This document shows, one piece after another, positions 50 through 15,964 of a stretch of DNA of 34,788 nt. The stretch is from positions 1-34,788 of the IMG/VR virus record IMGVR_UViG_3300002036_000002, one strand, 5' to 3'. Position 1 is the stretch's first letter. The number at the start of each line of letters is the position of its first letter. This stretch comes from a virus. Below the pieces are notes generated by a model, which was given only the letters and a program-made list of their open reading frames with translations, had not been told where the DNA came from and made no database searches. A program made the translations under genes and the position numbers.

Positions 50-974
50 GTATTCTGAAGGGATCGAAATAGGTGCGTTCACTCCTGGAGAGGCTAAAGG
101 GGGTAAGGCAAGAGTAGCAAAATCTATAAGAGCAAAACAGGCATCCGCTACTCTGGAGGGTTGGTTAATGCAAGCAGAGGCTGATCCCGAGGGGGTTATT
201 GAGTCTCTAGAAGATTTGAGGGATAGCGGAGAAGATGGGCTAGATTTTTCGTCTAGGCTTAAAGTTGAAAGGTTTGCTCAATCTCAGAGCAAGAAACTCT
301 TAAATAGAGAATATGACGAGCTCCTGAACAAGATTTTTTCAGGAGATATTACAAATATAGAAACTCTGGAAAGCGAGGCAAGCCATAGGATTGAATCCAG
401 GCATGTTGCAGAACTTGAAAAAGTAATTAGAAAAAGCGCCGCACCCAAAGAATTTAGCGATGAGGCTATGGCAAAAAATCTTGCAGATGTTTCAAGGGTA
501 GAAAGTGGTGACTATGCAGAATATTTGAAAGTGAAACGTCAAATAGCCAATACTATGCCTCCCGGAGAGCCTAGAGCTTTTGTTTTGGGGGAGCTTGATA
601 CAGCCTGGGGCGGAGAGACGCCGACAAATGATCCCTCTTCATTAGCAATCAAAGCAGCAAAAGAAGATTTACGAATCGCTTGGGAGATAGGAGGCTTAGG
701 GGCATTTAAGCCAGAGCCTGGAAGGCGGGGTAAAAAGGAGCCTCTTCTCCCTGTCCACCGTGATGCTGCGGCAAGATTTAACCAGATGAATAGAGATCTT
801 GATCAAATGTTACGAGAGTTTTCTCAGAGAGAAGGCAGAGATCCGAGACAGTCTGAAATAAAAGATATGGTTGATACTACAATGAAAATTGGAGTGCAGG
901 GGGTAGAGTTTCATTCAGCATCTCTTTTTGGAGTTGATCCAGAAACTGAAATTTTCGATATTTTACGTGAGTGA
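1..974 (+). CDS. 3' part of an internal virion (core/ejection) protein in the T7 gp15 position. It continues from 34214..34739 across the junction, about 499 aa when joined.
   Basis: The frame starting at nt 3 is open up to the track ORF 168..974. It is the same frame as the open ORF 34214..34788 once the 49-nt overlap is removed. Position is between a gp14-like and a gp16-like gene. Confidence 0.7.
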   Translation, partial: IDAATEIGDINGVEEAYSEGIEIGAFTPGEAKGGKARVAKSIRAKQASATLEGWLMQAEADPEGVIESLEDLRDSGEDGLDFSSRLKVERFAQSQSKKLLNREYDELLNKIFSGDITNIETLESEASHRIESRHVAELEKVIRKSAAPKEFSDEAMAKNLADVSRVESGDYAEYLKVKRQIANTMPPGEPRAFVLGELDTAWGGETPTNDPSSLAIKAAKEDLRIAWEIGGLGAFKPEPGRRGKKEPLLPVHRDAAARFNQMNRDLDQMLREFSQREGRDPRQSEIKDMVDTTMKIGVQGVEFHSASLFGVDPETEIFDILRE

Positions 975-3900
975 TATAATTACAGAAGATCAGGCGTTTT
1001 CTATAGTTCAGGGATTTAAGTCTATGAGTCCTTCCGAGAAGGATTCTGCTAAAGGGGAATTAAGAAGATTTGCTACAGCTACAAGGGTGATTGGAGCCCC
1101 GCTATTTCCTCAATTACAGGAAAGGAGAAGGAAGGCTGTTCTTGCTTTGGAGAGTAGATTTTTAGATGATGACGAAACTTTCTTAGAAACTGTCCCGGAA
1201 GAGAACAGAGAAGGAGCTAGGCATATTCTTTCAAATTTAAGCCAAGAATCCCGTAGGCGTGTCGCCAATACTGAATTCCTTCAAGCGGTTACTGGTAAAC
1301 GGGGAGGATATGCTGCTCTTCGGGAGAGTGTTGGGAGGTCTCTTCTTAATATTGAGGGAGAAATAACAGATTCTAATTTTCATAATGAGGTGAAAATTTT
1401 TATGGGGAAAAGAATGGTTCGGCGGGAAATGATTGAGGGTATACCTGAGATCGCCGCAAGAGCCTCTCTTCTTTCTGGAGATGCCGCAAAAGAATTTTCA
1501 AAATGGCAATCTGAGGCAAAGTCAAACTTTGGATATGATCCAAAAGAGGATGATTTATATAGAGGAGTTTTTGAAGAGGCTTTCAAAGTTGGAAATTCAG
1601 TCTTGGAAGGCAAGAGAGACCTTGTAAGGGAAACGGTAGACGAACTAGATAAATTATTTTCTAATACTGATGATGGGGGGCCATCGGATGCTATATCAAT
1701 AGCGGATAAGGTTGCTGCTATTAGCAAAGAAGATGAGCCGATTTTTTTAGCGGCAGTTCAAGCATTTGCAAATCAACAGAGCCTTACATCTAAAGAAGAG
1801 AAAAAGTCTGTAGTAACTCAATCTGGAGAGTCTTTTTCCAGATCATTCGATAATTTACTAGCTGGTCCTACTCTCGCAATAGCAAGGATAGATGAGAAGC
1901 TTGCAGAGATTTTAGGGGATCCTGAAACGATTTCTGATAGCAAGGAAACCCGAAGAGTTTGGGAGCTTAGACAGACGTTACGAGCAATTGGGGAGGGCAG
2001 CATTGATCCTATAAGGAAAATTTTGAAAGGCGGCCCAAGGGGACTTTTAGAAAGTGCAGCATATGGCGTTTCTGGAAGTCTCCCATATACTGCCGTTGCC
2101 GCTGCTCCATATCTTGGAATCCCTACAATAGTGGCAGCAACTGGAGAGAGTAATTTCGCACAGTTGAAACTTGAAAATCCCGATGTTGATGAGAGCGCTC
2201 TTTTAAATCTATCATATGCTTCTGCGGTTCCTGAGGCTCTTCTAGAGAGAATACAAGCTAATATAATTTTCGGAAGACTACCAAAGCTTGGAGGGGCTCT
2301 AAAGAGAGGCGCACAAGCTTCTTCTAGAGGATTAGGTCTAAGGAATTCTGACGCATTACTAGCTATTGGAGCAGAGTTTACGACGGAGTCCGCCCAGAGC
2401 TTAGTCCTTCCTGTAGTTCAGGAAATAGCAACGGCTCTTAGCCAGGATATTCCTGATGTAGACTGGGAGAAAGAGAAAGAGCAGTGGGTAAAGTCTTTGC
2501 CTGAAACTTTGGCTACTGTAATCCCTCTCTCTCTAGTTGGTGTAGGCGCTGCAAATATTAGAGAAATCAATGGGGGATCACTAATAATAAGAGACATAAA
2601 ATCTCTTAGAGCTGCTGGATTATCAGAATCTCAAGCAAAGGAGGTATCAATTTCTAATAATCCACAAGATAAATTGCGAGATCTATGGGGAGAACGTTTA
2701 GGATCAGAAAAAGAAAGGATCGAAGCATCTTCTCAGATCCGAAAGGATTCAGTTGAGATCTCTAATTCATCTAGAGCTCTAGAGGATCTAGGGGTATTCC
2801 CTAAAATAACCAAAAAGAATGGAGAAGATGGCTATATAGTAGATATAGGAGATGGAGAGACAATAGAAACGCAAACCTATGCGGAGGCGTCTTCCGCAAG
2901 AGATTCTGTCTTTGATGCAAACGAACTAGCTCAAGATGAGAGCGTGATCGAGATGGTTAAATTCTTTGAGGAGAAAGCAGCTAAGGGGGAATCATTTGAA
3001 ATTAGTCAGGATTTTAAGACTTTAGAAGATCAGATATCAGAGGGAATTGTAGACGAGGCCCAAGCTTTTGAGAGGGTTAAATTGCTTGAGAAGTCTCAGG
3101 GGCAAGAATTGGGAAGTACAGATCTAAGCTCAATAGCCGTCTTGGGCAGCAATGTCACAGAGTTTAAGGATGGTGTATTCCAGAGTACAAGTAAAATTTT
3201 CAGAGGAGCCTCTGTTCTAACTGTAATTGAAGAAAAAGCAGAAGGTGACGCTAAGCGTTGGCGTGCCGAGGGAAGAGTTAGTACAGAGGATTTGTCAGGG
3301 TTAATAAAAAAATATGAAGAAGCCACGGGTGACAGAATACTTGAGAGCGAAACAGAACAAGCGGTTATCGAAGCATGGTCCGATCTCGTATCAGGATATG
3401 CGGTTGCGAGGTATAGAGACAATGCGCAGCCATTCCAAGGATTTCGTGGCGCGTTAAAGAATTTGCTTAGGGGGTATAGAACTTTCTTTGAACAAGTTTT
3501 CCGTAGGGCTGCAAAAATAAACAAGGCAAGGCGTGATGGATCTCTAGACAGTGATCTAGAAGGTCTTCTTTCGGAATCGATAGGAATCTCTCAAGAACAA
3601 CAGGTGGTCAGAGATTCCTCTGTAGAGATAGAAAGAATATTCGGAGTTTCCGAGTTTTTGAGAGATGCGTCATTTTCTATCGCCCCAGCTGATTTTTTTG
3701 AAAAAGTAGGAAAAACTCTAGACAAAAAACTTAGATCTCCTGACGAAAGGATTAAAGCATTCGAAAAGGCTAAATCTAATCTTCCTGCTGTTAAGCTTGT
3801 AAATAAAAACAAAGATTCTCAGAGAAGAGCATTTGCTTCTTTGAGGGCTATAGTTTCAGCATTCCCACCAGAGGTAAGATCTAAAATAGGAATTCCTGTT

Positions 3901-6609
3901 GGACTGTTGGACTTTAAGACAGACAAGGGTAGAATCGGCGAAATAAATAGACAAGTAGATAGAGTAGATCGAATCTTTGATGAATTCTTGCGCAAGGAAT
4001 ATTTAGATGATGTCTTAAAGATCATAAAAAAAGCGCAGCCCAAAAAAACAGAAAGCCGTAATCTTAAAGGTAAACTTGGTCAAAAAGAACAGGCCAACGC
4101 AATTCTGGCAAAAGATGTTATAGGAATAAGCGCATCAGAAGTTGATTCAATATTAGATGATATTGCAGCCAAACTCGATAAACAAGAAGAAGGAAGCATC
4201 GAGTCTATAAATCTCATAGATAAATATGATCTTATAAACACAGTTGGAGCATTATCTAGCAGGGATAGCGAACATATAAAGTATGCTAGAGATTGGCTCG
4301 ATTCTAAATTTGGAAAGGCTAGACAAAGGCGTAAAATTTTGGAAGAGGCTAGAGCCTCAGAATTAAACATAAAGTCATCAGAGTTGCAGGAAGCAACAGG
4401 CAAAAAGGGAGCAGATCAGAATGATGCTAAGCGTGACGGTAAGCTTAAATGGTTTGGTAATTTTCTAACTGTTCAGCAATTAGATTTTCCTCAATTTCTT
4501 GAAAGAACATTCCCTGGTTCCAATTCTGCAATTTCTGATGGCGAAAGAGCTCAGAATCTTATAGGAAAATATGAGCAATCTATGATAGATCATAGAAAGG
4601 GGTTCGTATCAGCCGTTTCCGATATATTTAAAATAAAAGGGGAGAGGGCCGCCATGAATAAGATGGCAGAATTCATGACCCCTGAAAATAATACTGGGAT
4701 TTTCTATTATAAAGGAGGACAGAAAAAAGAATCTATACCAATAGATAAGGTAGAGGGAATAATATCTCCATTCACAGATGATGCAAAAACTTTAGGGTTC
4801 AATAAATCTGAGGTTGAGATAATAAGATCCGCATGGTCAGATCACCAAAAGAAAATCGCTTCTAGAATTAACAAAGATGGATCTCAGGCCATAGACACGA
4901 CTAAGTCATTAAGTGTAGATTTTAATACTACGAGGAAAATAGAAGAACAATCTATGAGCAAAATGGAAGCTCTTATGGATTGGCTTTTCATAGATCAGCC
5001 CGGAAACCAAGAGAACCAAGCTGCAAGAGGGTTCCCAGAAGAATCCAAGGAGCAAATAGAAAAGTTCATTGGAGATGACCTTATAAAGGTTGGGGAATAT
5101 ATGAAGGGTGTTTTAGGGAAAATGCAACCTGAAATTTCAAAAGTTCACGCTAATATAAATGGCATAGGACTTCCTAATCTTCCAAATTATTTCCCCAACG
5201 TTATGGATGTTTCTTCTAACGGAGAAGCAAATTTATTAGATCCATTTAACCCAAATTATGGAATAGGATCAAAAAATCCAGGAGCACTAAAAAGCCGCAT
5301 AAAAAACGGAGCTCGTCCAAAGAGGGTCAGCGCAATGCATGTGTTTTTTGGGCATGTCCAACAAATGGAGCATTACAAAACGTTTTCAGAATTCACTAGA
5401 GATATGAAAGCAGCCTATGGCAGAGTAGAAACTCGTCATGCTGTAGAGGCTAAATTTGGATCTAACCATGCTGATCTTTTGTCAAGATGGATTACTATTA
5501 TTGAAAATGGAGGGGTTCTAAACTTAGAGGCTGCTATTGAGGATGCAAGGTATTTAAGATGGATTCATAAAAACCTTGCAGGCGGAATTCTTGCTTTTAG
5601 AGCATCTTCCCTGATGGTTCAATGGACGAATGTCCTATCTACATTGCAAGAGGTTCCGTTAAAATCTTGGGCGAAGGCGGCTATTAGGCTTTCCGTTAAT
5701 CCTTCAAAAATGAAGTCCGCAATATCAAGGGCTTGGAATTCTGATATTATAACGAGGCGTCGTGAGCAAGGAGGATCCCCAGAGCTTAGAACTGTTCTGT
5801 CTGCAAGGCCTCAAAAAACAGGCCTGTCTTCCAAATTTGTCCAAGCGGGTCTAGAGCTTCTGAATACAACAGATGCTGGATTTCTAAGTATTTCTGGAGC
5901 AATAGCTTATGAAGCGAATCTTTCTGCTGCTAAAAAACAGGGGTTAAGCGATCCAGAGGCCGTTAGATTTGCTGAGGAAGAGACGGAGCGTAATCTCCAA
6001 AAAACAGCACAACCAACGGATTTTATTAATAAGGGTCTAGCAGAAAATTCCGCTTCTGCGCCTATACGTCTTTTTGCGTATATGTTCATCTCAGATCCTA
6101 GGCGTAAATATGCTAACGCCCAACAAGCATTGGTTAATGCAATAAATGGGGTAGACCGGGAAAAAGCACTTAGAGTAATCCCTCTTCTAATTCTTGTGTT
6201 GCCCACTATGGAATGGGCAACTAGAGCACTTGCCTCCATGATATTTAAAGGTGAAGATGAAGAGGAAGCCTTTGATCCTAAAGAGCTTGCAGCTTCTCTA
6301 ATGACTAACCAATTAAATGGAATCCCGATAGCTGGTCATATGGTTCAAGCTGTCTCTAGATCGGCAATGGGATTAATAAATTTTGGGGACAACCCTATAC
6401 AAGCGCCTCTCAAAGGATTATCAGGAACTATTAATAATTCAATAGACGGATTGGAAGCTGCAAGAGAAGGGGATATGGAGGAGGCGGTTGAAGAATTCTC
6501 TAGAGCTTTGAGGGATGCTGGAAAATTTTATGCCCCCCTAGGAGCATTATCAAATATAGTCACTCAATCATTCGGTGTGTCTAAATTTCTAGATGAAGAT
6601 CAGGAATAA
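928..6609 (+). CDS. Giant internal virion / DNA-ejection protein (T7 gp16 position), 1893 aa.
   Basis: Single uninterrupted ORF located after the gp14/gp15-like genes and before the tail fibre. It has hydrophobic segments near the C-terminus (e.g. LRVIPLLILVLPTMEW). The true start is uncertain: ATG 928, GTG 967 (overlapping the upstream TGA as GTGAGTGA) or ATG 1024. Confidence 0.65.
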   Translation: MELIQKLKFSIFYVSDIITEDQAFSIVQGFKSMSPSEKDSAKGELRRFATATRVIGAPLFPQLQERRRKAVLALESRFLDDDETFLETVPEENREGARHILSNLSQESRRRVANTEFLQAVTGKRGGYAALRESVGRSLLNIEGEITDSNFHNEVKIFMGKRMVRREMIEGIPEIAARASLLSGDAAKEFSKWQSEAKSNFGYDPKEDDLYRGVFEEAFKVGNSVLEGKRDLVRETVDELDKLFSNTDDGGPSDAISIADKVAAISKEDEPIFLAAVQAFANQQSLTSKEEKKSVVTQSGESFSRSFDNLLAGPTLAIARIDEKLAEILGDPETISDSKETRRVWELRQTLRAIGEGSIDPIRKILKGGPRGLLESAAYGVSGSLPYTAVAAAPYLGIPTIVAATGESNFAQLKLENPDVDESALLNLSYASAVPEALLERIQANIIFGRLPKLGGALKRGAQASSRGLGLRNSDALLAIGAEFTTESAQSLVLPVVQEIATALSQDIPDVDWEKEKEQWVKSLPETLATVIPLSLVGVGAANIREINGGSLIIRDIKSLRAAGLSESQAKEVSISNNPQDKLRDLWGERLGSEKERIEASSQIRKDSVEISNSSRALEDLGVFPKITKKNGEDGYIVDIGDGETIETQTYAEASSARDSVFDANELAQDESVIEMVKFFEEKAAKGESFEISQDFKTLEDQISEGIVDEAQAFERVKLLEKSQGQELGSTDLSSIAVLGSNVTEFKDGVFQSTSKIFRGASVLTVIEEKAEGDAKRWRAEGRVSTEDLSGLIKKYEEATGDRILESETEQAVIEAWSDLVSGYAVARYRDNAQPFQGFRGALKNLLRGYRTFFEQVFRRAAKINKARRDGSLDSDLEGLLSESIGISQEQQVVRDSSVEIERIFGVSEFLRDASFSIAPADFFEKVGKTLDKKLRSPDERIKAFEKAKSNLPAVKLVNKNKDSQRRAFASLRAIVSAFPPEVRSKIGIPVGLLDFKTDKGRIGEINRQVDRVDRIFDEFLRKEYLDDVLKIIKKAQPKKTESRNLKGKLGQKEQANAILAKDVIGISASEVDSILDDIAAKLDKQEEGSIESINLIDKYDLINTVGALSSRDSEHIKYARDWLDSKFGKARQRRKILEEARASELNIKSSELQEATGKKGADQNDAKRDGKLKWFGNFLTVQQLDFPQFLERTFPGSNSAISDGERAQNLIGKYEQSMIDHRKGFVSAVSDIFKIKGERAAMNKMAEFMTPENNTGIFYYKGGQKKESIPIDKVEGIISPFTDDAKTLGFNKSEVEIIRSAWSDHQKKIASRINKDGSQAIDTTKSLSVDFNTTRKIEEQSMSKMEALMDWLFIDQPGNQENQAARGFPEESKEQIEKFIGDDLIKVGEYMKGVLGKMQPEISKVHANINGIGLPNLPNYFPNVMDVSSNGEANLLDPFNPNYGIGSKNPGALKSRIKNGARPKRVSAMHVFFGHVQQMEHYKTFSEFTRDMKAAYGRVETRHAVEAKFGSNHADLLSRWITIIENGGVLNLEAAIEDARYLRWIHKNLAGGILAFRASSLMVQWTNVLSTLQEVPLKSWAKAAIRLSVNPSKMKSAISRAWNSDIITRRREQGGSPELRTVLSARPQKTGLSSKFVQAGLELLNTTDAGFLSISGAIAYEANLSAAKKQGLSDPEAVRFAEEETERNLQKTAQPTDFINKGLAENSASAPIRLFAYMFISDPRRKYANAQQALVNAINGVDREKALRVIPLLILVLPTMEWATRALASMIFKGEDEEEAFDPKELAASLMTNQLNGIPIAGHMVQAVSRSAMGLINFGDNPIQAPLKGLSGTINNSIDGLEAAREGDMEEAVEEFSRALRDAGKFYAPLGALSNIVTQSFGVSKFLDEDQE

Positions 6610-14243: not shown

Positions 14244-14576
14244 ATGAACACAGGGAAAAAATCTACTGGAAGTATGGTTGTCGACCAACGTCTTGTTGCC
14301 ACTCAATTTCAACTCTCGGAAAATGTAGCCGCACACTACCCAGCAGGCGTCCACATTGACCGTATGACCAGTCCCATTTACGACGGAATCAAATGGGCGG
14401 TCAGGCGCAGAGGATACGTCTTATCGACTAACGGAGAATGGGAATATGAACCAATGCCATCGAGTAGAGACGATGATTTCTATGCACGTTACCGCTTTGG
14501 TTCACTAGATGCGGCATTGGAGGCGCTCGACCTTTACATGAGCAAAATAAAAAACAATGAAGAAACATACATTTAG
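14244..14576 (+). CDS. Hypothetical protein.
   Basis: ORF from the track. No motif recognised. Confidence 0.45.
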   Translation: MNTGKKSTGSMVVDQRLVATQFQLSENVAAHYPAGVHIDRMTSPIYDGIKWAVRRRGYVLSTNGEWEYEPMPSSRDDDFYARYRFGSLDAALEALDLYMSKIKNNEETYI

Positions 14577-14691
14577 TAAAGAGGCAATGAGGGCTTTTGC
14601 TGACAGTGCAAGGAATTGGCAAGCCTGCGACAGGAGGAAAGTATTCTATGAATGTAACGAGTTCTGGCAAGATCCCTCTGGATTCACATGA
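14557..14691 (+). CDS. Cassette peptide A1, 44 aa.
   Basis: MKKHTFSKEAMRAFADSARNWQACDRRKVFYECNEFWQDPSGFT. It has paralogues at 14931 and 15305, and conservation across three copies argues for a real gene. Confidence 0.6.
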   Translation: MKKHTFSKEAMRAFADSARNWQACDRRKVFYECNEFWQDPSGFT

Positions 14692-14739
14692 CCTACAAGG
14701 TCTGCCTGTCAGGTTGACGGGCTCGAAACAGGTGATAGT
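14692..14739 (+). promoter_or_regulatory. Conserved 48-nt structured element, copy 1.
   Basis: cctacaaggtctgcctgtcaggttgacgggctcgaaacaggtgatagt, nearly identical in all three cassettes. Possible hairpins are GCCTGTC-AGGTT-GACGGGC, or CCTGT paired with ACAGG. Confidence 0.6.
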
Positions 14740-14934
14740 CCCATAGATCCTTCAGGTCAGGAGGGCCTAGCACTAGAAGAGTTTGATCGTTATTTGTATA
14801 GGAAATATTGTTCGAACCGTGAATATAAGCACCTTACATATACAAAATTAATAGACCGTGGAGAGGGAGAACTTATAGCTGACCTGATGGAAGAAGGCAT
14901 AAAGAATGGGGATGAAATTACTATACCAATATGA
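14692..14934 (+). CDS. Cassette protein B1 reading frame with no canonical start codon. It is in frame with A1 through TGA 14689-14691.
   Basis: 81 codons are open after the A1 stop. It aligns with B2 and B3 (LALEEFDRYLY...GEGELIADLMEEGIKNGDEITIPI). Where B2 and B3 have ATG, this copy has ccc ata. The only nearby in-frame candidate is ATA 14743, 6 nt after AGGTGAT. Confidence 0.4.
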   Translation, partial: PTRSACQVDGLETGDSPIDPSGQEGLALEEFDRYLYRKYCSNREYKHLTYTKLIDRGEGELIADLMEEGIKNGDEITIPI

Positions 14935-15065
14935 AAACACACACATTTAGTAAAGAAGCAATGAGGGCTTTTTCTGACAGTGCAAGGAATTGGCATGACT
15001 GTGAAATGAGGAAAACAAGATATCGATGCGGCACTTACTGGCAAGATGAATTTGATTTCACATGA
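14931..15065 (+). CDS. Cassette peptide A2, 44 aa.
   Basis: MKTHTFSKEAMRAFSDSARNWHDCEMRKTRYRCGTYWQDEFDFT. ATGA overlap with the B1 stop. Confidence 0.6.
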   Translation: MKTHTFSKEAMRAFSDSARNWHDCEMRKTRYRCGTYWQDEFDFT

Positions 15066-15113
15066 CCAACAAGGTCTGCCTGTCAGGTTGACGGGCTCGA
15101 AACAGGTCATGGT
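15066..15113 (+). promoter_or_regulatory. Conserved 48-nt structured element, copy 2.
   Basis: ccaacaaggtctgcctgtcaggttgacgggctcgaaacaggtcatggt. Confidence 0.6.
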
Positions 15114-15308
15114 ATGAGGGATGGTTCAGTTCAGGAAGACCTAGCACTAAAAGAGTTTGATGATTATTTTTATAGCAAATATAAGCACCGTAAATATTCC
15201 CTTATATATAGCTATACAGGTTTAATAGACTGTGGAGAGGGAGAATTTATAGCTGACCTAATGGAAGAAGGCATACGGGACGGGGATAAAATTACTATAG
15301 AATTATGA
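15114..15308 (+). CDS. Cassette protein B2, 64 aa, acidic.
   Basis: ORF from the track. Paralogous to B1 and to the B3 N-terminus. Confidence 0.6.
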   Translation: MRDGSVQEDLALKEFDDYFYSKYKHRKYSLIYSYTGLIDCGEGEFIADLMEEGIRDGDKITIEL

Positions 15309-15439
15309 AAACACACACCTTTAGCAAAGAGGCAATGAAGGCTTTTGCTGACAGTGCCAGAGGATGGCAGGACTGTGAAATGAGGAAAACAATATATATA
15401 TGTAAGTATTACCGGCAAGACATATTTGATTTCACATGA
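15305..15439 (+). CDS. Cassette peptide A3, 44 aa.
   Basis: MKTHTFSKEAMKAFADSARGWQDCEMRKTIYICKYYRQDIFDFT. ATGA overlap with the B2 stop. Confidence 0.6.
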   Translation: MKTHTFSKEAMKAFADSARGWQDCEMRKTIYICKYYRQDIFDFT

Positions 15440-15487
15440 CCTACAAGGTCTGCTTGTCAGGTTGACGGGCTCGAAACAAGTGATGGT
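15440..15487 (+). promoter_or_regulatory. Conserved 48-nt structured element, copy 3.
   Basis: cctacaaggtctgcttgtcaggttgacgggctcgaaacaagtgatggt. It carries the paired C>T and G>A changes. Confidence 0.6.
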
Positions 15488-15964
15488 ATGAAGATTTATT
15501 CAGTTGATGAACGCAATGCATTAAAAGGGTTTAATAATTATTTACGTGATAAAGGTTCACTTCATGCACTTATTAACTATAACTATAACTATATAATAGA
15601 CGAGGGAAATGGAGAATTTGTAGCTGACCTGATGGAAGAAGGTATAAGGGATGGGGATGAAATTACTATACCAATATCAAAGGTTGTTCGAAATTTTAAA
15701 ACTATGAACGCATACATACTAACGAGCGAATACGAGGAATATGAACAAAAGGGAGAATACTTCATTGCGTGGTTCCATAAGAAGCCTAGCCTCGATGAGC
15801 TTCAGCAAGTAATGATAAGTAAAGACGAAAAAGATTCTCGTGAGCTTTGCTGTCACATTTTAGATGGTGGTGGTCGCAGAAAGTTGTCGGATTATCAATG
15901 GTATCACCTGCGAGAAGTTCCTTCTGAGAACTTCATAGCTCAGCCGCTTCCAACTGAACTATGA
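15488..15964 (+). CDS. Cassette protein B3, 158 aa: a B domain fused to an extra C-terminal domain.
   Basis: The N-terminal 60 aa align with B1 and B2. Where B1 has ccaataTGA, this copy has ccaataTCA, and the frame continues for about 95 more residues. Confidence 0.6.
   Translation: MKIYSVDERNALKGFNNYLRDKGSLHALINYNYNYIIDEGNGEFVADLMEEGIRDGDEITIPISKVVRNFKTMNAYILTSEYEEYEQKGEYFIAWFHKKPSLDELQQVMISKDEKDSRELCCHILDGGGRRKLSDYQWYHLREVPSENFIAQPLPTEL

Follow-up and report, generated by a model that had tools for sequence, protein, structure and literature searches.

The window, by which we mean the whole stretch of DNA analysed (34,788 bp), is a complete virus record with direct terminal repeats. In it, a short reading frame, A, is closed by a TGA, and the same frame runs on through a linker free of stop codons into a second frame, B, whose first copy has no start codon at its expected place. 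This locus raises the question of whether ribosomes pass the TGA, and of which amino acid they would insert there. A model that saw only the letters and a list of their open reading frames had suggested possible recoding here, with initiation at an in-frame ATA, readthrough of the TGA and insertion of selenocysteine as its options; we refer to that note as the sequence-only reading.

We found that the region 14557-15685 is a tandem triplication with a period of 374 nt (Table 1). Every cassette consists of A, TGA, a 48-nt linker and B in a single frame, just as the sequence-only reading had described, and the codons gained by reading beyond the TGA number 80, 80 and 174 in cassettes 1, 2 and 3. 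The stop context ACA-TGA-C is identical in the three copies, the base after the TGA always being C. These cassettes are paralogues of one event and do not count as independent cases. Elsewhere in the genome, one further gene pair, among those separated by at least 12 nt, likewise has an open in-frame linker, in agreement with the earlier caution that such a linker is likely to arise by chance.

Table 1. Positions of the parts of the three cassettes in the window.
Feature	Coordinates	Strand	Description
A1	14557-14691	+	44 codons and TGA stop (14689-14691)
Linker 1	14692-14739	+	16 stop-free codons in the A/B frame; translation homologous to P0008 residues 39-51
Hairpin 1	14704-14722	+	8-bp stem, GGU loop, -11 kcal/mol, starts 12 nt after the UGA
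B1 frame	14740-14934	+	64 codons and TGA; stop overlaps the A2 start (ATGA)
A2	14931-15065	+	44 codons and TGA (15063-15065)
Linker 2	15066-15113	+	carries hairpin 15078-15096
B2	15114-15308	+	64 codons; own ATG 6 nt after AGGTCAT
A3	15305-15439	+	44 codons and TGA (15437-15439)
Linker 3	15440-15487	+	hairpin 15452-15470; C-to-U change leaves a G-U pair, -8.2 kcal/mol
B3	15488-15679	+	own ATG; stop replaced by TCA (15677-15679)

The borders of the cassettes differ among the copies. The A1 frame opens within a 110-aa ORF (14244-14576) and overlaps its last 20 nt, whereas the A2 and A3 starts are ATGA overlaps with B1 and B2. At the other end, the B3 frame has lost its stop and continues in phase into the next gene (ATG 15704, end 15964). 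Residues 73-113 of the 158-aa ORF formed in this way match phrog_6933 from profile position 1, so this ORF is either a fusion of B3 with a small phage gene unrelated to it or another junction of two frames in phase. Two further kinds of frame over this region were rejected: antisense mini-ORFs over the linker (26-29 aa), as all genes lie on the plus strand, and a +1-frame ORF at 14597-14746, which is present in cassette 1 only.

The long ORFs of the window are all on the plus strand. Pfam matches were obtained for a T7-type head-to-tail connector, a DnaB helicase and a VRR-NUC nuclease, and the fibre gene carries BNR and CBM5/12 domains. The best match of the portal among GenBank phages was Cobetia phage Carin1, followed by Vibrio and Pelagibacter phages. 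Since even this best match is just 29.6% identical, we read the phage as isolated and probably as a marine, podovirus-like one. ARAGORN found no tRNA genes in the phage genome, and an Rfam scan of the genome gave no family at gathering score. One ORF (928-6609) encodes 1893 aa, which is very large for a 34.8-kb genome, and has no Pfam match at E <= 0.001.

The TGA codon terminates 17 of the 44 plausible genes, often via ATGA overlaps. Thus, the genetic code of the phage is the standard one and TGA is a normal stop, a caveat that the sequence-only reading had already entered. ORFs of up to 1893 codons are free of TGA and intact under table 11, the portal and the DnaB helicase match Pfam at full length under the standard code, and the only in-frame TGAs are the three paralogous ones of the cassettes, within an early gene. 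A TGA-recoded phage (TGA as Trp, code 4) is ruled out by the 17 genes that end in TGA, by the intact long ORFs and by the lack of a tRNA gene.

To search for relatives, we built a profile from the three read-through translations, in which we set W at the stop, and ran it against a library of 1.84 billion representative proteins. Besides the phage's own A and B, the only non-repetitive match was P0008, a metagenomic protein (ENA) of 105 aa, which clusters with a nearly identical one, P0009; the ENA contigs that encode them are 7,537 and 3,983 bp long. Five matches that ranked higher (P0003-P0007) are long repetitive proteins and were rejected as compositional; of the three scanned with Pfam, two (P0003 and P0004) are fungal Hpf1 YTTT-repeat proteins.

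One uninterrupted ORF encodes P0008 and covers A, linker and B in that order, with query positions 11-111 aligned to its residues 8-100. In this alignment, GFT-TGA-PTRSACQVDG lies ungapped opposite GFNWPACAAVEFDG, and YTKLIDRGEGELIADL lies opposite YTEVIDRGEGDAIAHL. The residue opposite the TGA is Trp in P0008 and likewise in P0009, so that at the protein level the relative has a sense codon at the position of the stop. Scored with W in place of the stop, P0008 reached 35.8 bits (library-wide E = 8.8e-4); replacing this W by X lowered the score to 30.9 bits (library-wide E = 0.028), and masking the entire linker lowered it to 21.4 bits, so that 9.5 bits of the match come from the linker peptide and 4.9 bits from the Trp. 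When P0008 was in turn used as a tblastn query on the six-frame translation of the window, the three cassettes were its top three matches (E = 2e-8, 7e-5 and 0.01), each as a single alignment running through the penalised stop. The evidence for this homology comes from a single distant relative, of which there are two nearly identical sequences.

Other searches gave the following results. No cassette relatives were found in IMG/VR using protein patterns, the neighbouring VRR-NUC gene, the exact 21-nt hairpin core and a degenerate B-motif pattern, none in JGI metagenomes and GTDB genomes, and none among GenBank phages by blastn. When the fusion and P0008 served as queries in word-indexed protein searches, the only match was P0008 itself, and neither Pfam nor PHROGs yielded a significant match to A, B, the fusion or P0008. 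Since P0008 is one ORF over all three parts with Trp at the TGA, we conclude from the protein alignment that A, linker and B descend from one gene in which TGA replaced a Trp codon before the triplication; that this codon was TGG is assumed from the protein.

We then considered the substitution pattern of the cassettes. A codons 1-20 have a dN/dS of about 0.1, so A is by this measure a real coding gene, and the A copies differ from one another by 0.3-0.5 changes per synonymous site, a distance at which an unconstrained linker would have drifted at many positions. No segment of the cassette varies less than the linker: two of the 39 columns in its codons 1-13 are variable, compared with 13/60 and 17/83 in the best-conserved coding parts (Fisher P = 0.02-0.04 against the linker). 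Both changes in codons 1-13 are at synonymous third positions, and two out of two synonymous has P of about 0.07. The linker's three non-synonymous changes are confined to codons 14-16, which fall at a gap in the P0008 alignment. Such a distribution would be expected of a translated helix that passes into a loop, although the counts are small. As the linker is even less variable than the coding parts, its conservation exceeds the coding level and points to an added constraint on the nucleotides, most simply the hairpin described below. As alternatives, a purely RNA-level constraint or gene conversion could account for the low variability of the linker.

Variability is unevenly distributed over the rest of the cassette. 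The most diverged parts are the C-terminal half of A (14617-14688, 39% variable columns) and the N-terminal half of B (14740-14850, 56%); in these two segments and their paralogous positions dN/dS is about 0.6-1.8, with conserved segments on the flanks. Such a distribution suggests that two surface segments of a single domain are under diversifying selection, as would fit a host-interaction or anti-defence protein.

The read-through product of cassette 2 was modelled with AlphaFold2 from an alignment of five sequences. We obtained one compact domain (pLDDT 85, pTM 0.83), whose only two strands are the N-terminal residues 3-5, from A, and the C-terminal residues 122-124, from B. The linker forms a helix at 46-53, in blocks with a mean pLDDT of 88-93. 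A translated spacer would be expected to be disordered, yet the linker is predicted to fold with confidence, which supports one fold made of A, linker and B, alike as a fused product or as a two-piece assembly. In the model of P0008 the helices follow one another in the same order, but its quality is low (pLDDT 57). Searches of PDB and BFVD with Foldseek gave no match (E >= 0.2), the wide fold search with VIA-align gave none either (Z <= 4.3), and the ESM Atlas returned weak viral leads only, with scores of 0.84 or less.

The first B copy differs from the other two at its beginning. As the sequence-only reading had noted, B1 has no ATG, GTG or TTG where B2 and B3 begin; it has CCC ATA at the site of ATG AGG in B2 and ATG AAG in B3, with the ATA at 14743 and the nearest canonical in-frame start at TTG 14794. 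In B2 and B3, the ATG lies 6 nt after AGGU(G/C)AU, a motif absent from most genes of the phage. Gene leaders in the window are mostly A-rich without a Shine-Dalgarno motif, few having GGAGG, and the starts of B2 and B3 are atypical for this phage in being preceded by AGGU(G/C)AU. A start of its own with a ribosome-binding motif is therefore present for B in cassettes 2 and 3, and is missing in cassette 1.

We compared the B copies using P0008 as an outgroup. B1 has one unique change against four in B2, and one against seven in B3, and over the B region the identities to P0008 number 16 for B1, 13 for B2 and 10 for B3. The motif IDRGEG is found in P0008 and, among the three B copies, in B1 only, and all family-invariant B residues are kept in B1. 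By these comparisons B1 is the most conservative copy and the closest to the outgroup. That the copy without a start is the most conservative one argues against the decay of B1 and for expression of B1 via a route that needs no ATG. The openness of B1, which the sequence-only reading had counted towards expression together with the similarity to B2 and B3, says little by itself, as the B1 frame would remain open with P = 0.24-0.46 under neutral substitution. All indels between B copies are multiples of three. Since dN/dS of B is about 1 or higher in all pairs, B as a whole looks fast-evolving, and a protein-level constraint on it is not clear.

RNAfold predicted a hairpin with an 8-bp stem and a GGU triloop, GCCUGUCA-GGU-UGACGGGC, in the linkers of all three cassettes, with energies of -11, -11 and -8.2 kcal/mol. 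It begins 12 nt after the UGA, where the sequence-only reading had put it, and its loop contains a G, as was also stated, with a computed position at nt 21 in place of about 19. Using a loose rule of our own for bSECIS-like hairpins, we found that 12 of the 654 TGA triplets have such a hairpin behind them, seven of the 12 being the cassette hairpin seen from nearby TGAs. Only about 0.8% of the remaining TGA triplets show this geometry, which is thus not trivial. RNAalifold on the three sequences kept the hairpin, in which the only change is a C to U that preserves pairing, and proposed a flanking helix with one possible compensatory pair; one natural cassette variant bears a G-to-A and C-to-U pair of changes. 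The covariation, which the sequence-only reading had taken to favour the other helix, amounts in three sequences to a single event that can be assigned to two different helices. The folding energies of the 91-nt regions are not unusual compared with shuffles (z = -1 to -2). No sigma-70 promoter or intrinsic terminator was found in the linker on the plus strand. A role of the hairpin as a repeated promoter or regulatory site of the phage was rejected because its core occurs just three times in the genome.

A stable hairpin behind an in-frame UGA recalls bacterial selenoprotein genes, in which the hairpin, as a SECIS element, would recruit host SelB to insert selenocysteine. Several features fit this reading: an in-frame UGA is followed by an open in-frame extension, the stem starts at the stated distance and its loop begins with G, the geometry is rare among the other TGA triplets, and the linker has a Cys 6 residues downstream. 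Known selenoproteins all have Cys homologues (PMC12013277), whereas the sole homologue here, P0008 with its mate P0009, has Trp and not Cys or Sec at the aligned position, and this leaves selenocysteine unsupported. The SECIS covariance check proposed in the sequence-only reading, made with Rfam, gave no match of any family, SECIS and tRNA-Sec included, even at E <= 10; bacterial SECIS elements are poorly captured by models (PMC12013277). In addition, AGGUCUGC, which had been placed in the hairpin and likened to the SECIS apex of E. coli fdhF, is present 5' of the hairpin and outside its apex. The phage has no tRNA gene of its own, no Sec-related Pfam family was found among the eight large ORFs scanned, and a full-text literature search returned no paper whose title or abstract deals with a phage selenoprotein. 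We regard selenocysteine at this UGA as highly improbable. Sec-like hairpin geometry behind a UGA is thus insufficient to call selenocysteine, and the residue in the homologue decides.

The reading that we tentatively favour, at a little below an even chance, is that the UGA is a leaky stop decoded as Trp, giving A and a minor A-linker-B product. The earlier idea that ribosomes may pass the TGA is strengthened in this form, by the single ORF of P0008, a linker that may be evolving as coding sequence and the conservative B1, and it has lost its selenocysteine version. The ancestral gene would have had about 105-125 codons and encoded a small helical protein made up of A, linker and B. Its conserved Trp codon, assumed to be TGG, would have become TGA before the triplication and been retained as a leaky stop, at which most ribosomes terminate and release the 44-aa A peptide. 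A few per cent of the ribosomes would insert Trp via near-cognate Trp-tRNA(Trp), which restores the ancestral residue, and would continue through the linker into B, producing a 125-aa A-linker-B protein. B2 and B3 may also be made alone from their own ATG, and B1 would depend on readthrough. The balance between termination and readthrough may be adjusted by the stable hairpin that starts 12 nt after the UGA; we know of no example of a readthrough-stimulating hairpin in bacteria, or of a phage hairpin that stimulates Trp readthrough. A stronger form, in which UGA-C and the hairpin are a dedicated signal that sets a fixed ratio of 44-aa to 125-aa product by Trp readthrough in three fast-diversifying paralogues, with B1 wholly dependent on it, seems to us rather unlikely. 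Basal readthrough of UGA by Trp-tRNA(Trp) is 2-4% in wild-type E. coli (PMC10570021), and UGA-reading tRNA(Trp) variants occur in diverse bacteria (PMC13092985). From the early-gene position, the tandem amplification and the two fast-evolving segments, our guess is that the protein binds a host factor, for host take-over or anti-defence.

A split gene would explain much of the same evidence, and we hold it to be a serious possibility although we incline to doubt it. Here the TGG-to-TGA change would have cut the ancestral gene, so that A (44 aa) and B (64 aa) would now be separate proteins that assemble non-covalently, B being made by re-initiation or coupling at the ATG 48 nt downstream of the TGA. 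The linker would be kept as an RNA element, for instance a hairpin that makes the mRNA more stable or uncovers the start only during translation of A. The TGA is an ordinary stop for 17 of the 44 genes, many of them with ATGA overlaps, and the placing of the B2 and B3 ATG behind AGGU(G/C)AU fits independent initiation of B. A linker less variable than the best-conserved coding parts is what a nucleic-acid element would show, and the hairpin is kept through its C-to-U change, with one possible compensatory pair in the flanking helix; against this, the folds are no more stable than shuffles, and there are three sequences with a single covariation event that fits two helices. The terminal strands contributed by A and B in the model form an arrangement that is also open to two fragments. 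For B1, the split gene offers a weak product from ATA 14743 or TTG 14794, or a copy on its way out. AUA initiates at 1-2% of the AUG level in E. coli (bioRxiv 10.1101/063800), because of which initiation at ATA 14743 would be no stronger than basal readthrough. However, a split gene does not predict that both changes in linker codons 1-13 are synonymous, that the non-synonymous ones fall at the gap of P0008, that the B copy without a start is the most conservative, or that an untranslated linker is modelled as a confident helix inside the domain. The third explanation is that the arrangement has no current function: the TGA would be an inherited nonsense mutation, the linkers would be similar via gene conversion, and linker and B would not yet have been degraded, in cassette 1 or perhaps in all three. 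The dN/dS of B at about 1 or higher, the fair chance that each copy stays open under neutrality (P = 0.24-0.46) and the mosaic divergence along the cassette, which tandem-repeat recombination can produce, are consistent with it. On the other hand, the indels between B copies keep the frame and B1 retains every family-invariant residue. The linker is flanked by the most diverged segments (39% and 56% variable), which is odd for conversion tracts, and the TGA is kept in all three copies though one transition would restore Trp. We consider this explanation improbable.

If the split-gene reading is true, the case is ordinary. Trp readthrough of the cassette UGA would matter in other ways. Leaky stops are textbook matter for the RNA phage Qbeta and for eukaryotic viruses, and to our knowledge they are hardly documented in dsDNA phages with the standard code. 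Gene callers would annotate such cases as two tiny orphan genes. Since the leakiness of UGA follows the levels of tRNA(Trp) and RF2, it could couple the output of an early gene to the translational state of the host. The UGA with its hairpin and linker is a 60-nt, easily cloned test object with three natural variants, and bears on whether a downstream structure can make the bacterial ribosome read UGA as Trp.

The closest known system is the coat gene of Qbeta, where Trp is inserted at a leaky UGA to give the A1 readthrough protein. The cassettes are similar in that the phage otherwise treats UGA as a stop, that the in-frame UGA has an open extension behind it in each of the three copies, and that a major short and a minor extended product are proposed, with near-cognate tRNA(Trp) as the proposed decoder. 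They differ in that the phage is a dsDNA, podovirus-like one and the gene a small early gene, whereas the Qbeta case concerns a virion protein. The cassette stop lies at an ancestral Trp codon inside a domain and not at the end of a complete protein, it is present in three tandem paralogues with a stable hairpin after it, and two of these have their own start for the downstream part; readthrough is here inferred from sequence.

Bacterial selenoprotein genes such as E. coli fdhF (PMC12013277) share three features with the cassettes: a stable stem-loop some 12 nt behind an in-frame UGA, an apical loop that contains a G and lies at about 21 nt, and the string AGGU. The cassettes differ from them by the Trp in the homologue, by the lack of a match to a SECIS covariance model and by the lack of a redox motif around the UGA. 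TGA-recoded phages (Borges et al., bioRxiv 10.1101/2021.08.26.457843; code-25 phages, PMC10746230) likewise have TGA where relatives have Trp. In such phages in-frame TGAs are numerous, most of them in late genes, and a suppressor tRNA is generally encoded, whereas here there are three, in an early gene, and no tRNA. Finally, structure-stimulated readthrough in RNA viruses of animals and plants (PMC13517186) resembles the cassettes in having a stop with a conserved downstream stem-loop and a dual constraint, on coding and structure, behind it; it involves eukaryotic ribosomes and release factors, and its spacing is typically about 8 nt (PMC13517186). If the dedicated form of the proposal is true, the UGA-C and hairpin signal would be a bacterial counterpart of the structure-stimulated readthrough of eukaryotic viruses.
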